A stretch of DNA of 64,000 nt, taken from positions 1 through 64,000 of the IMG/VR virus record IMGVR_UViG_3300009320_000011; one strand, given 5' to 3'. Position numbers and translations under genes: made by a program. Below are positions 41,448-52,362 of the stretch, piece by piece. The stretch is from a virus. The notes under the pieces are model-generated. The model was not told the DNA's origin. It was given only the letters and a program-made list of their open reading frames with translations, and ran no database searches. Numbering within the stretch: position 1 is the stretch's first letter; the number at the start of each line of letters is the position of its first letter.

Positions 41448-42462
41448 TATAATAAATAGGAGTAAAGCAGAGTCCATCCACCAAGACATTAATTCAAAGG
41501 TGTTGATAGTGGATGGACTTTAACTCAACTTATATATTCGTTGTTTTGCCGCTATACCCGCAATGAATGGCGAAGGATATCATGTCGGTGGTATAACAGG
41601 ATTTTTGAAATCAATTGCGTATGCCATCCGACAATTTAATCCAACAAGATGTATAATTGTGTTTGATGGAAAAAATGGATCGGTTAGACGCAGGAAATTA
41701 TACCCAGATTATAAACATAAAAGTACTATTTCATCAAAGTATAATCGGATGTATAAAAATGATGCTGACGAAGTGGCATCGATGAAAAAACAATTTTCTA
41801 GATTACTTGATTATTTAAGTACTTTACCTATATCTATAATATCAATAGATGGTATTGAAGCTGATGATACAATAGCATATGCATCAACTGAAATACTAAA
41901 AGATAGTGATGTAGTTATATTATCAACTGATAGGGATTTCTTACAATTGGTCGACAAACGAATCAATGTGTGGAGTCCTATTAAAAAGATACTATATAAT
42001 GTTGATACAATTAAAGAGGAATTTGGTATAAGTCCTAATAATTTTTTATTGTATAAAATGTTCGTCGGAGATAATTCAGATAATATTCCGGGAATCAAGG
42101 GAGTTGGAATTAAAACAATTGAAAAAAGATTTTCATTTCTAAAAGAGGACAAAGAATATAGCATTAATGATATTATTAATGAATGTGTATTAAATCAAAA
42201 TACTAAAATCAAAATATATGATTCCGTAATAAACCAAAAAGATCAACTGTTGTTAAATAAACAACTGATGGATTTGAAAAATTTAGACATATCAGGAAAC
42301 TCAAAATTATTAATAGGATATAAAATAGAAGAGAAAATAGAAAGCTTAAATAAAATAGCATTCGTTGGAATGTTATTAAAGGATGATATTATTAACTTGG
42401 TTGGTGATGTACATTTCTGGCTAAAAAACTCATTCGATAAATTGAACTACTATGCAAAGTGA
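41437..42462 (+). CDS. rnh: 5'-3' exonuclease / T4 RNase H-like flap nuclease, interrupted by in-frame TAA at 41521-41523
   Basis: VLIVDGL*LNLYIRCF, VFDGK, EADDTIAY, STDRDFLQL, GDNSDNIPGIKGVGIKT; the ORF-track start at 41563 omits the first catalytic Asp motif. Confidence 0.85.
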
Positions 42463-43846
42463 TAACTTAAAAGAACACGACGATAACTTTCAAGCTAAAT
42501 TAATAGCTTCTTTTATCACTGATAAGTTTTTCTTTCAACAAGTAATTGATGTTATTGATCCAAAGCATTTTACTACAGAGATGGACCAGTTTGTCGTTAA
42601 ATTAATGTTTGATCACTTTTTGGATTATAAACAATTACCGACAGGAACTGTAATAAAAACTGAAATTGAAAAGATTAAAGATGATGTATTGAGATCATCA
42701 ATATATGATAGATTAAAAAAAGTTCAATCGGTTATTGACTCGACTGATTTACAATATGTCAAGGATGAATATTTGAAATTCTGTCTAACCAAAGAAATCG
42801 AATCAGCACTAATAAAATCAGCTGACTTATTACAAGTTGGTGAATTAGATGGAATAAAAACACTAGTCAGTAATGCATTTAATTCAATATCGGATCGCGA
42901 TTTTGGTCATAATTACTTAAAAGGATTTGAAGATAGATACGAGAAAGATATCCGAAATCCAATACCAACTCCATGGCCGGTTATTAATAAAATAATGGAT
43001 GGCGGATTATCTGGAGGAGAACTTGGGTGTGTAATCTCACCGCCCGGAAGAGGAAAAACATGGAGTTTGTCGGCAATTGGTTCTCACGCTCTTAAGATTG
43101 GAAAAAATGTATTACATTATACACTTGAAATTAATGAGCATTATGTGGCAAAACGATATGATTCAATATACAGCGGCGTACCATTTTCAGAACTAAGGTT
43201 CAAAAAAGAAGAGGTATTTGATAGTATTAAAAGTTATGATGAATCAACTCTAATAATAAAAAAATATGGTGGCAAAAAAGCATCAATACAAACTCTTACT
43301 GCTCATATTGAAAAATGTATCAATAATGGAATAAAGCCAGATTTGATTGTTGTAGATTATGCTGATTTACTAAAACCTACAATATATCATAATAAAGAAT
43401 CACATGCGATATTGCAAGACATATATGTCGACTTATGCGTATTGGCCGAAGAATATAATATACCGTGCTGGACTGCATCACAAACCGGAAGACATGCTAT
43501 AAACTTAGATATTATTGAAGATGATTCAATTGCCGGATCATATGGCAAAATAATGGAATCATATTTTGTTATGACAGTATCAAGAAATGTAACAGATAAA
43601 GAAGGCGGAACAGCAAAAATCTTTGTGGCAAAGAATAGATTTGGTCCAGATGGATTAACTTTTCCTTCGAAATTTAATGCAAGCAACGGCCGGATATTGA
43701 TATATGAAAAAGATAGCATTGAAGGAAAAAAAGTAACGAATGATCTAGACAATGATATACCAACAAGAGTTGAATTACGTGATAGGTTCAATGATTTGAT
43801 GGGCAAAGACAAAAAATTAGATGATAAAAAAATAGATTTAGGATAA
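42452..43846 (+). CDS. gp41: Replicative DnaB-like helicase (gp41-like)
   Basis: PPGRGKT Walker A, YTLEI, VVDYADLL, WTASQ, KNRFGPDG. Confidence 0.9.
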   Translation: MQSDNLKEHDDNFQAKLIASFITDKFFFQQVIDVIDPKHFTTEMDQFVVKLMFDHFLDYKQLPTGTVIKTEIEKIKDDVLRSSIYDRLKKVQSVIDSTDLQYVKDEYLKFCLTKEIESALIKSADLLQVGELDGIKTLVSNAFNSISDRDFGHNYLKGFEDRYEKDIRNPIPTPWPVINKIMDGGLSGGELGCVISPPGRGKTWSLSAIGSHALKIGKNVLHYTLEINEHYVAKRYDSIYSGVPFSELRFKKEEVFDSIKSYDESTLIIKKYGGKKASIQTLTAHIEKCINNGIKPDLIVVDYADLLKPTIYHNKESHAILQDIYVDLCVLAEEYNIPCWTASQTGRHAINLDIIEDDSIAGSYGKIMESYFVMTVSRNVTDKEGGTAKIFVAKNRFGPDGLTFPSKFNASNGRILIYEKDSIEGKKVTNDLDNDIPTRVELRDRFNDLMGKDKKLDDKKIDLG

Positions 43847-43867
43847 TATTTAGGAGGATATATATAC

Positions 43868-49259: not shown

Positions 49260-49592
49260 ATGAAAAAGGTATTACTTGAAGAATTGAATTGGCCAAATGA
49301 TTTCGATAGCGATTGGTTAAATGAGATAATAGAATCTGTTAATGAAACATCTGATTGGAATGGAAAAGCTAAAATGGTAATTACACAAAAAGATGTTGAT
49401 GATTATAATGGATTATTTGATAATATGCTGGGATGGGAATTCCAAATTCAACAAAATAAACATGAAGACCATAAGACCGATGGCCAAATGGTTGAATATC
49501 AAATTAGCATAACTGATAATAAAAAACAAAAAACACAATTTTATACTGAAATGTGTTTGATGGTTGGTTGGAACATTAAGTTATTAAAATAG
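49260..49592 (+). CDS. Hypothetical protein
   Basis: 110 aa ORF. Confidence 0.55.
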   Translation: MKKVLLEELNWPNDFDSDWLNEIIESVNETSDWNGKAKMVITQKDVDDYNGLFDNMLGWEFQIQQNKHEDHKTDGQMVEYQISITDNKKQKTQFYTEMCLMVGWNIKLLK

Positions 49593-49620
49593 TATTGAAA
49601 TGAAAAAAAATAAATAACGA

Positions 49621-52362
49621 ATGTACCAAAATCTTTTTTTCGATCGAGAAAGTTATGTAATGCACGTCTTCGACGATGCTAAAGGATACTATAAATCCAA
49701 ATACAATTCGTATGCCTATGTATTAGATGCTGGTGGTATGTATAATACACTGGATGGCAAAACTGTTAAGAGGATACCGGGATATAAGGTTAAAGAATAT
49801 GATAAAAGTTTATTATATGAATCAGATGTAAAACCAGAAATAAGGTTTTTGATCGACAAGTACGGACTATCAGATGAACCATCCAAAAATCATATTACAC
49901 TATTTTTTGATATCGAAGTCGAATCAGCTGATGGTTTCCCAGACCAAGTATTAGCTGAGCAAGAGGTAACTGCAATATCATGTTGGATAAAAGAGATAGA
50001 TTCATCTATACTACTTCTTCTTGATAAAAGCGACATTATAAAAGATGTAAATAAGAAAAATGTTAAAATTATATCATTCAAAGATGAAGTATCTTTATTG
50101 GATGAATTTATTAATATATTACACAAAATCAAACCAACGATACTAACTGGTTGGAATATAAATAACTTTGATATACCATATCTATATAATAGGTATACCA
50201 ATATATTTGGTGAAGATGTAGCAAAACAATTAAGTCCAATTAACATAGTTAAAGAGGATCATTATAACGACGGTGAATATAAAATAGCTGGTGTAAATTG
50301 TTTAGACTATTTATTATTATATAAGAAATTCGAATCAAACCAGAAACAAGCATATTCACTTGATTTTATTGGTGAATTGGAGATAGGACTTGGCAAGGTA
50401 AAATATGACAAATCATTGGATGATCTATACAATACAGACATCGAAGGATTTATTGAGTATTGTTTTCGTGATGTTGAAATTGTAAAACAACTTGATGAAA
50501 AATTAAACCATATTGAACTGACTAAGATGGTATGTCATAAAGGACACGTACCATACGAAGATATATTTATGTCGTCTAGATATTTAGAAGGAGCGATATT
50601 AACGTATTTGAAAAATAATGAAATAGTATCACCCAATAAAAAACCAGAAATCAAACTTGTATTATCTCGAGATCATAACTTAGATGAATCAAAATTATAT
50701 GTTAGAAGCATACCAAAAGAAACACCATTAAGTGGTATGTTAGGCATAAAGAAATCAAAATCCTCATTTGTATATGTCGACTATAAAGAATATAAGGGGA
50801 ACTATTTCATATTAAAGGAACCACTAAAAGAATATATAGATAAAACTTATAAGGTATCGTTCGAGTTTACAGGAGCTAGAGTTAAACCACCAAAACCAGG
50901 TAGGTTTAAGTGGATGTTTGATTTAGACTTAAAATCAATGTATCCGTTTTCAATTATTACATTGAATATATCTCCAGAAACAAAAAAAGGCAAAGTATTT
51001 GAATTTGACCCATATGAGTTTTATAATAATAAAGACGCAAATATAAGAGTCATATTTGACTCAGATGAATTATTGATTACGTATTCTGAATTAAGGAAAT
51101 TGTTGATAAAATATAATTGTTCTATATCATCCAATGGAATAATTTATTCACTTGAAAAACGTGGTTTGATACCAAATATACTTGAATTGTGGTCTTTTGA
51201 GCGCGATGATGTAAAGGAAAAACGCGATGAACATAAAGAAGGATCAAAGAAATATCAGTATTTCGATAGACTCCAGGAAAGGCAAAAGGTTTTGCTTAAC
51301 TCAATTTATGGGTGTCTTGGTCTGCAATCATTTCGTTGGTATGATTTAGATAATGCGGAAGCAACAACGTCGAGTGGAAGGACATTAATAACATATTCAG
51401 AAAAAGTTGCAAATTTATTTTATAATAAAGAGTTAAATATCGATGTAAGTGCATCAAAAAATAATCAAGTAGATTATTGTGCTTACATCGATACGTAGAT
51501 GGATTCATTATTCTTTTCAACTTTACCAATTATTGAAAAAAGATATCCAACTGAGGATTATGAAAATGATTCTTTTATGATTAATAAAACACTTGAAATC
51601 ACTAGAGAAATACAAAACTTTATTAATGATTCGTATAAAAATTATTCAAATGGATTTCATTGTGTTAAAAATCATAGCTACAAAATTAAGCAAGAACTTG
51701 TAGCAAAATCCGGATTTTGGTTAGATGTAAAGAAACGATATGCATTACTAATAGTTGATAAAGAGGGCGTGAGACTTGAAAAACCAAAATTAGATGTAAA
51801 GGGATTGGATACTGTACGTAGTGATTTTCCAAATAGTATGCGTGAGTTTATGAAGGAAACATTAATGCATATATTAGAGTTTAAGTCAAAAGAGTTTTTG
51901 GATAAACATATTGAGCAATTCAAAGAAAAAATAAATTCAATTGAAGTAAAAGATATCGCTCGACCATCTTCAGTAAATGGTATTGGTAAGTATTCTGGAA
52001 GAAAAACACCAGGAGGATTGACTGAAATTAAAAAAGGAGCTCAATCACATATAAAAGGATGTATATATTATAATGATTTGATTAATATATTTGATCAATC
52101 AAAAGATTACGAGCACATCAGGAATAAAGATAAAATTAAGAGTGTTTACTTGAAAGACAATCCATATCAATTTGAATCTTTATCTTATCGGGGATATGAC
52201 GATCCGCCAGAAATTATTGAATTTATTGAAAAATATATAGACCGAAATAAAATCTTTGAATTATTGCTGGTAAATAAATTAAATTCATTCTATAAAGCTT
52301 TGGGCTGGGGCGAGATTAATGCGTTAATAAATAAAAACATAAATAAATTTTTTGATTTTTAG
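49621..52362 (+). CDS. gp43: Family B DNA polymerase (gp43-like), interrupted in motif C by TAG at 51496-51498
   Basis: FDIE, GWNINNFDIPY, DLKSMYP, KVLLNSIYG, YIDT*MDS, KKRY, KGLDTVRSD. Confidence 0.92.

Follow-up and report, generated by a model that had tools for sequence, protein, structure and literature searches.

How are the replication enzymes of a phage made if two of the genes, one for a 5′-3′ exonuclease (FEN) and one for a family-B DNA polymerase (PolB), each carry an in-frame stop codon inside a catalytic motif? The question is raised by the window analyzed here, the first 64 kb (64,000 nucleotides) of a 75,151-bp virus contig of IMG/VR (IMGVR_UViG_3300009320_000011). The contig has a G+C content of 31%, is estimated to be about 38% complete, and its source is a distant, uncultured marine T4-like phage. 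The original prediction held that both enzymes are produced by a ribosomal hop of 6 nt over the stop, behind a hairpin of the mRNA. We consider it probable, at about 0.6, that both interruptions are maintained functional recoding cassettes, namely programmed 6-nt translational stop-hops, and not damage. Judged gene by gene, the sequence comparisons make such a hop likely in FEN and leave it evenly poised in PolB.

Six extra nucleotides behind a hairpin in FEN and PolB

The closest intact relative of the window, L004 (JACKQG010003287.1), encodes an uninterrupted PolB of 903 aa and an uninterrupted FEN of 332 aa (proteins P0002 and P0121), 89-93% identical to the window proteins. DNA alignment with L004 placed 6 additional nt exactly at each of the two sites. 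The FEN gene, on the plus strand like PolB and the two hairpins, begins with a head ORF (41437-41523) of 28 codons, which is 95% identical to L004, includes the first catalytic Asp and ends with ...KVLIVDGL. This frame, MSNNIINRSKAESIHQDINSKVLIVDGL, is opened by an in-frame ATG (41437), shares 11 nt with the 3′ end of the preceding uvsX-like gene, likewise in L004, and is closed by TAA (41521-41523); it is followed by CTC AAC TTA TAT, which reads LNLYIR... The putative recoding site (41518-41526) comprises the take-off codon CTT, the stop TAA and the landing codon CTC, six of these bases being absent from L004. The FEN body (41527-42462; relatives of PF02739/PF01367) continues in the frame of the head, from NLYIR... 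to its stop. In PolB, the N-terminal part (49621-51495; PF00136/PF03104) has 625 codons ending with ...DYCAYIDT. The site itself (51493-51501) consists of ACG (Thr), TAG (51496-51498) and ATG (51499-51501), again with six bases absent from L004, which has ACT as the Thr codon. The C-terminal part (51502-52362) resumes with GAT TCA (DSLFF...) and contains the second half of motif C and the thumb up to the stop. The ATG directly after the PolB stop makes a start codon available for reinitiation. The predicted stop plus one codon inside a catalytic motif was confirmed in both genes (DGL-TAA-L-NLY and YIDT-TAG-M-DS), and the alignment with L004 and other relatives bore out that removal of the 6 nt restores the family consensus. 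Inserts of 6 nt are too short for a Hint domain or a ribozyme core, so that neither an intein nor a group I/II intron accounts for them.

Folding confirmed the hairpin before each stop, with stems of 13 and 16 bp including G.U and A-U extensions instead of the 11-12 bp first proposed. The 13-bp FEN stem (5′ arm 41469-41481, 3′ arm 41509-41521) is perfect over 11 bp and encloses an inner 6-bp helix with its apical loop (41485-41504); the minimum free energy (MFE) is −27.8 kcal/mol (z = −5.8). Its 3′ arm includes the V-D-G-L codons together with the initial base of the stop, the stem extending into the take-off codon. Two synonymous changes relative to L004 (ATA to ATC and GTT to GTG) lengthened the perfect stem from 7 to 11 bp. 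The 16-bp PolB stem (5′ arm 51438-51453, 3′ arm 51478-51493) contains two G.U pairs and encloses an inner 6-bp helix with its apical loop (51461-51477), with an MFE of −24.3 kcal/mol (z = −5.25); the 3′ arm runs through the C-A-Y-I-D codons into the first base of ACG. A 24-nt insertion relative to L004 (51445-51468), encoding the additional residues VSASKNNQ of a variable protein loop, contributes the hairpin loop and most of the 5′ arm.

Such a combination of hairpin and stop is unusual in this genome. Not one of 200 shuffles folded as well as the native hairpin, in FEN or in PolB. At the 58 same-frame stop junctions of the 75-kb contig, at which a stop separates two long open stretches of the same frame, the energies of the upstream sequence were −25.5 for FEN and −23.2 for PolB, the next value being −15.1. 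When the whole contig was folded in about 15,000 sliding windows of 65 nt, the two hairpins ranked first (FEN) and fourth (PolB). Only two in-frame stops interrupt genes in the contig, one TAA and one TAG, both behind these hairpins, which indicates that they do not reflect a change of the genetic code. No Rfam family was found at either site, the sole match being a chance miRNA (E = 0.99). Judging from the alignments, the two inserts are derived, and the hairpins arose along with them.

Both halves of both genes are under purifying selection

The dN/dS values measured against L004 were 0.04-0.10 for the segments on both sides of both stops, with 0.07 for the FEN body and the same value for the C-terminal part of PolB. 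A relative-rate test with intact outgroups gave 39 unique amino-acid changes in the window versus 35 in L004 for PolB, 8 versus 8 for its C-terminal part, and 9 versus 12 for FEN. These low dN/dS values together with the lack of rate acceleration indicate that both halves of both genes are still translated in frame. The expectation that reads would carry the stops held at PolB, where a marine metagenome contig from Logan matched positions 51439-51653 exactly, at low depth and from a run that may be the source sample of the window itself; no contig lacking the 6 nt was reported. Three marine DNA sequencing runs from one study contained the window sequence, in small shares, with no RNA run among them.

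These data bear on the proposal that the metagenomic genome is defective or mis-assembled and that the stops arose by inactivating mutation or as errors of assembly. The window is indeed a metagenome-assembled fragment whose read support comes from low-depth contigs alone. The exact contig over the PolB site, the selection on either side of each stop and the steady rates, hairpins that co-evolved with the inserts and, as described below, the presence of cassettes in independent samples and diverged lineages make damage or misassembly scarcely credible.

The FEN cassette recurs in other phages

IMG/VR was searched with the pattern x-D-G-L, TAR, any codon, N-T-F-I, in which Leu was given as YTN and the post-stop codon was left free. 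The 25 matches, against less than one expected by chance, included 24 FEN genes from at least five further lineages. A FEN pattern with NLY gave no match, and a scan of the fetched loci for any same-frame stop behind a hairpin, swamped by GC-rich unrelated loci, added no case. Sixteen FEN cassettes are unique, that of the window included, and the stop alleles occupy at least six separate places in the FEN tree, two of them diverged clades in which every member carries the stop. All have the order DGL, TAA or TAG, CTN, NTFIR (NLYIR in the window) and lie behind an ATG-started head ORF of 28 codons in the window and 31-41 elsewhere, one being called at 48 from an upstream ATG. All are also preceded by a hairpin of −20 to −33 kcal/mol, the foot of which is located 2-4 nt before the stop, mostly directly before the take-off codon.

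The codons on the two sides of the stop are strongly constrained. All 16 unique alleles have a CTN landing codon, with CTT, CTC, CTA and CTG each represented, and CTN makes up 3% of codons. CTT is the take-off codon in 15 of the 16, versus 4 of 49 unique intact alleles (Fisher p = 3e-10); TTA or TTG, which encodes this Leu in 27 of the 49 intact alleles, is used by none of the stop alleles (Fisher p = 6e-5). The sole CTG take-off has a CTG landing codon.

Readthrough by a suppressor or near-cognate tRNA gives no reason for either the universal CTN after the stop or the CTT before it, and it would leave two extra residues in each protein (DGL-X-L-NLY and YIDT-X-M-DS). The continuous frame across both inserts would suit it, as would the fact that only TAA and TAG were seen, since one ochre-type suppressor could read both. 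No tRNA gene was found across the 75-kb contig; this contig is incomplete, and such a gene could be elsewhere in the remaining genome. The restriction of in-frame stops to two positions behind hairpins also speaks against a general suppressor. Two additional residues beside the catalytic Asp residues of FEN and PolB are unlikely to be tolerated, and the stimulators of readthrough are normally found 3′ of the stop, not 5′. Taken together, readthrough is very improbable. The same signals, a hairpin whose end immediately precedes a short direct repeat bordering the insert, would fit a loss of the 6 nt at the RNA level, either by a jump of RNA polymerase between the short repeats (CU...CU) at the nascent hairpin or by cutting and rejoining of the RNA. 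We know of no precedent for a productive 6-nt polymerase jump, a repeat of 2-3 nt would give a very weak hybrid, and the Rfam search was negative at both sites. Moreover, the element after the take-off codon is always a stop codon, which is relevant to ribosomes and not to polymerases, even if this is partly an effect of ascertainment. Removal from the RNA is quite improbable on this evidence, and a translational stop-hop remains the reading that we prefer.

The FEN hairpin was then compared between alleles. In the alignment of those alleles that share one register, 81% of the cells were paired versus 16-51% for slid controls. The third positions of the Gly and Asp codons change with the 5′ arm (G-C, A-U or U-A), two-sided changes are seen in 5 of 10 pairs, and the covariation score was reached by none of 500 shuffles. 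These substitutions show that the FEN stems are kept by compensatory changes. The anticipated co-occurrence of the stop with a covarying hairpin in homologues was thus found in FEN, in 24 further alleles; in PolB it takes the form of an association of hairpin and stop, which is given below.

A restart downstream of the stop would be another way to express the FEN body. In most FEN alleles, 27-90 codons and the conserved NTFIR...DG.H.GG separate the stop from the first in-frame ATG, GTG or TTG. Pairs of 65-80% protein identity taken from within the all-stop clades showed downstream dN/dS of 0.05-0.23 at dS values from about 0.8 to more than 3. The lack of a near start codon and this strong downstream purifying selection exclude both reinitiation and decay for FEN. 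Internal initiation from a Shine-Dalgarno (SD) sequence bridged by the hairpin, as in T4 gene 38, likewise fails for FEN, there being no start codon.

Several further observations concern the FEN site. An SD-like AGGAG is present at 41458-41462 of the window, within a 15-nt insertion missing in L004, and an SD-like purine motif (AGGAG, GAGGA, AAGGA or GGGAG) is found 3-6 nt ahead of the 5′ arm of the hairpin in most of the stop-bearing lineages compared (window, L238, L232, L228, L237 and L250). The window flank GAGUAAAG is able to pair, with one bulge, to CUUUAACUC, which covers take-off, stop and landing codons. A quasi-palindromic (templated) origin of the insert was considered and dropped, as the bases past the 3′ arm mismatch the complement of the 5′ flank. 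The 299-aa FEN P0123, seemingly truncated like that of the window, proved to be a choice of the gene caller on an intact gene (L017).

The PolB cassette and the alternative of a split polymerase

The order Y-I-D, ACG, TAA, ATG, D-S recurs after a 13-bp hairpin in L098/L102, which belong to the same record as L104 (IMGVR_UViG_3300025644_000172, PolB region 394-3855). The L104 PolB is about 45% identical to that of the window and is encoded by a truly split gene: the N gene (624 aa) precedes, in this order, three small ORFs with no Pfam or PHROGs match, a 27-codon head ORF MKIKNIQKIEVDVDTSGPSDHNIYIDT, the stop, and an ATG-led ORF of 284 aa. The stem ends directly before ACG, and its 5′ arm arose by amino-acid-changing substitutions in the head. 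Since L105 (a 94% relative of L104), L106 and L128 have an uninterrupted M.IKKI...NIYIDTDSVFF, L104 too carries 6 additional nt. The equivalent 65 nt of 79 intact YIDTDS relatives folded with −6.6 ± 2.8 (minimum −14), compared with −21.1 and −23.2 for the two stop alleles, so that a hairpin is present at this site in 2 of 2 stop alleles versus 0 of 79 intact ones.

A third PolB, P0003, is 82% identical to that of the window, terminates after YIDT and contains an additional loop that is homologous (...VGVDATKNNQQ...). Its residues VDA and CIY could be encoded by complementary triplets, which from the protein points to a covarying stem. P0004, 81% identical, is intact. The distribution of the PolB cassette is patchy, because the window is nearer to intact L004 (89%) than to stop-bearing P0003 (82%). 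With the patterns tried, no other PolB cassette was found in IMG/VR or in GTDB genomes, the matches beyond L098/L102 being non-coding and due to chance. Among the five other FEN-cassette contigs, PolB is uninterrupted in three and has no match in the remaining two. The FEN and PolB cassettes are therefore independent elements, and the idea of one system shared by the two genes had to be abandoned.

The stop-ATG of PolB calls for an explanation that does not apply to FEN. PolB alone could be a true split, with termination after YIDT, reinitiation at the adjacent ATG and two non-covalent chains, FEN still using a hop. The hairpin would then mask the restart site, so that the C fragment would be made only by coupled ribosomes and in 1:1 stoichiometry; hairpin-masked coupled starts are an established bacterial mechanism. 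In both cases known from DNA (window and L104) the stop is directly followed by ATG, and an ACN landing codon would suit a hop better. These phages also commonly have split family-B polymerases, many of them divided just upstream of motif C, including by true split inteins at DTD|S. On the other hand, the break would fall inside the metal-binding beta-turn of motif C and bring a free carboxylate and an extra Met into the active site, and L104 would lose the 27-residue peptide that L105, L106 and L128 keep fused to the C fragment. The called C-part gene on the P0003 contig begins at an internal Met and not directly after the stop, a weak hint that no start codon is present there. Finally, the geometry is identical to that of the FEN family, for which reinitiation is excluded. 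On balance, we regard a two-chain PolB as unlikely. The predicted hop is strongly favored by the comparative data in FEN, and its case is weaker in PolB, where the stop-ATG leaves room for reinitiation.

The PolB genes of these phages vary in other ways around motif C. Many T4-like PolBs (L104, P0005, P0020, P0066 and others) are split just upstream of it, the N gene having a tail of about 45 residues (...ETDEII-like) and the C gene beginning with M.IKKI..IEV... These segments resemble a small module that serves docking or derives from an intein, and they are not long enough for a complete Hint fold. P0253 and P0256 have true split inteins at DTD|S. The PolB C-terminal ORF P0252 (294 aa, on a 33-kb JGI contig) begins with LHLHRHVTDSIF..., just before TDS of motif C and with a non-ATG start, and may be another kind of motif C interruption. 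The 110-aa ORF upstream of PolB in the window had no Pfam or PHROGs match.

Genomic setting and homing endonucleases

Both genes are part of a replication module at 39.4-53 kb of the window, with genes for gp32-like, UvsX/RecA, FEN, DnaB-like helicase, ribonucleotide reductase (RNR), PolB and methyltransferase proteins. No near DNA match to the window was found among GenBank phages, and the best PolB protein match there was 37%; the best named relative, at this protein identity, is Microcystis phage Mel-JY01. In L248, L235 and L227, which represent two FEN lineages, uvsX is separated from the FEN head ORF by an ORF with HNH and/or NUMOD3 motifs; uvsX directly abuts FEN in the other lineages and in the window. 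The inserts may be scars or immunity marks, probably left by homing-endonuclease activity on conserved motif DNA as for T4 mobA/gene 60, and the Leu-stop-Leu cassettes of FEN would form a family that has spread among T4-like phages, in part together with HNH homing endonucleases. The ATG in PolB would possibly be a relic of a gene split made by an endonuclease, or a reinitiation codon.

The window genome is otherwise full of homing scars, for instance the split inteins of RNR. Its RNR large subunit (43868-49255) is encoded by three genes with intein-splicing domains (split inteins) at the junctions, with nuclease-like or unknown ORFs between the pieces (45121-45888 and 46993-48117); in L004 it is a single 849-aa gene. 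The uvsX gene contains a hairpin at 40431-40495 (−21.7 kcal/mol, one of the top twelve when the 65-nt windows of the contig are ranked by strength), the 3′ arm of which lies over the Walker A codons (GLEASGKS) with no stop there, and a second strong one just upstream (40341-40405, −24.1). These may be analogues of the stop-less FEN hairpins described below. The late structural genes (1-39500) mostly have AAGGAG-type ribosome-binding sites, and the leaders of the replication genes (39500-63000) are mostly A/T-rich, without such a site. As had been noted at the outset, the phage encodes ribosomal protein bS21 (3841-4119; Pfam PF01165, 35 bits), the gene being located among the structural genes. 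No bS21 gene was found in the five other FEN-cassette contigs, each of which is 15-21% complete and hence uninformative on this point.

A model for the proposed stop-hop

The two sites would share a common grammar, made of the foot of a stem, one sense codon, a stop and one codon to which the same tRNA can re-pair. The ribosome would hold the take-off codon (CUU in FEN, ACG in PolB) in the P site with the stop in the A site, so that 13-16 nt of the 3′ arm fill the P site, the E site and the mRNA exit path, the 5′ arm and the inner helix remaining outside. Zipping of the stem would pull the mRNA forward like a loaded spring, each base moved allowing one more stem pair to form. The peptidyl-tRNA would release the take-off codon and re-pair 6 nt downstream, on CUC in FEN and on AUG in PolB. 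In FEN, tRNA-Leu would re-pair with at least the first two bases. In PolB, the anticodon CGU of tRNA-Thr would form A-U, a middle G.U and G-C with AUG, a pairing comparable in strength to a CUU landing on CUG. Decoding would then resume, 9 nt giving one amino acid, and restore the consensus DGLNLY in FEN and YIDTDS in PolB, with the junctions ...VLIVDGLNLYIR and ...AYIDTDSLFF, respectively. The phage bS21, positioned at the mRNA exit of the 30S subunit, might possibly tune the hop. The gating of replication through bS21 that was first suggested would likewise be no more than a possibility.

Several observations weigh against the stop-hop as an account of these sites. The pattern used to search for FEN alleles demanded Leu (YTN) and TAR, and the presence of the stop was thereby ascertained by the search and not independently observed. 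Intact FEN alleles (L050/L052 and L051) have a perfect 11-15-bp stem at the same place without a stop, and the hairpin may have another function, or merely outlast the loss of the insert. The matched codons that had been claimed for both genes are found in FEN, whose first two bases are always equal at take-off and landing; in PolB, ACG and ATG differ at the middle base, and ACG at this Thr codon is seen in 25 of the 79 intact relatives, which makes it weak evidence. Coupled termination-reinitiation has stop-ATG as its classical signature. The known PolB cases number only three, and the DNA of two, the third (P0003) being known as a protein. No homing-endonuclease gene adjoins either site of the window, and none stands beside FEN in L237 and L243. 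The known stop-hops of E. coli are inefficient (PMC5009743; bioRxiv 10.1101/2024.12.09.627546), and an essential polymerase would need a far better yield.

The stop-less hairpins deserve a closer description. The stems of L050/L052 (about 2905-2969) and L051 end at the CTC Leu codon of DGL, and weaker, interrupted stems occur in the intact alleles L032 and L021. All five intact alleles with CTC at this Leu, and one with CTT, have strong hairpins (−24 to −31). A hairpin with CTC and no stop is what is expected after loss of CTT-TAR from CTT-TAR-CTC, or just before its gain, and these alleles may be revertants or precursors of the cassette. In FEN, the stop is always accompanied by the hairpin and the hairpin is sometimes found without a stop. 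Hairpins without stops in relatives, which the original prediction had named as evidence to the contrary, are thus restricted to a few intact FEN alleles and are not seen in the 79 intact PolB genes.

Comparison with known systems

Experimental knowledge of translational bypassing comes essentially from one gene, T4 gene 60, and from the mitochondria of yeast. According to a recoding review of 2016, no occurrence of natural in-frame stop hopping was known (PMC5009743), and we found none in the literature from 2016 on. The data lean somewhat towards placing the window sites in a natural, evolutionarily maintained class of hairpin-driven in-frame stop-hops. If this is true, a cassette of about 60 nt (hairpin, take-off, stop and landing codons), present in many phages, would be a minimal and easily testable system that could show how mRNA structure at the exit site drives forward movement, and a small part for engineered recoding. 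This phage would have two unrelated cassettes of this kind in essential replication genes. It would also extend the idea of homing-endonuclease 'immunity' inserts in catalytic motifs that are repaired by translation. In automated gene calls, genes of this kind are systematically mistaken for truncated or split ones.

One of the closest known systems is T4 gene 60 with its MobA HNH element (Manning and Atkins, bioRxiv 10.1101/2022.08.31.505936; Wills, Parsawar and Atkins, bioRxiv 10.1101/2024.12.09.627546; PMC5009743). In both cases, the take-off sense codon is directly followed by the stop and decoding resumes at a codon that allows re-pairing, the insert interrupts a conserved catalytic motif of a replication-type enzyme, and the site is near the 5′ end of a short head ORF (FEN, and the PolB C fragment of L104). 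An HNH-family gene immediately upstream in L248, L235 and L227, the patchy distribution and signs of 'hit and run' are further likenesses. According to one proposal for gene 60, bypassing is driven forward by pairing of the mRNA as it exits (bioRxiv 10.1101/2024.12.09.627546). There are also differences. The gap of 50 nt in gene 60 is replaced here by 3 nt plus the landing codon (a shift of 6 nt), no stem-loop lies inside the gap, all structure being 5′ of the site, and there is no recognizable nascent-peptide signal; the head peptides of the FEN family (28-41 residues) have no evident similarity to that of gene 60. The 5′ hairpin is much stronger (13-19 bp) and abuts the take-off codon, whereas that of T4 is 9 nt away, and it is conserved by covariation, whereas the T4-type 5′ stem-loop is reported to be poorly conserved. 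Homologues of gene 60 occur only in topoisomerase genes with MobA. Here the host genes are FEN and PolB, without sequence homology to gene 60, and the window sites have no adjoining homing endonuclease.

The sites also resemble the stop-hops of E. coli. Those of Weiss et al. 1987 and O'Connor et al. 1989, as summarized in PMC5009743 and bioRxiv 10.1101/2024.12.09.627546, were low-level events on artificial constructs without stimulatory signals. In the synthetic E. coli cases, 9 nt give one residue (PMC5009743). The FEN sequence CUU-UAA-CUC (CUN-UAR-CUN in the family) has exactly this form, and the proposed basis is the same, a stop that is slow to decode in the A site and re-pairing of the same peptidyl-tRNA. 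By the definition of a stop-hop as codons of the same tRNA around a single stop, the FEN family fits, and PolB does so only with the middle G.U pair. Unlike the E. coli constructs, the sites are natural, evolutionarily maintained, located in essential genes and equipped with a dedicated hairpin.

The mitochondrial byps of Magnusiomyces capitatus, in the account given by PMC5009743, measure 27-55 nt, number 81 per genome and are context-independent, with peculiar mitochondrial decoding. As far as that account goes, they too are short inserts corrected by translational bypass, with take-off and landing codons that are not always matched, as for ACG and AUG here. The phage differs from this description in having two sites, each of 6 nt and each with a specific hairpin.

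The last comparison is with divided polymerases. Split genes for family-B DNA polymerases occur in T4-like phages and in archaea. Like the split PolBs L104-L106, L128, P0020, P0066 and P0253, the window PolB formally consists of two adjacent ORFs, of 625 aa and then ATG plus 286 aa, and splits and inteins are concentrated at motif C. In those proteins, however, the break falls 10-25 residues before motif C or is made by a true split intein at DTD|S, and separate genes with dedicated interaction or intein segments are involved, whereas the two ORFs of the window are only 6 nt apart, inside the catalytic turn.

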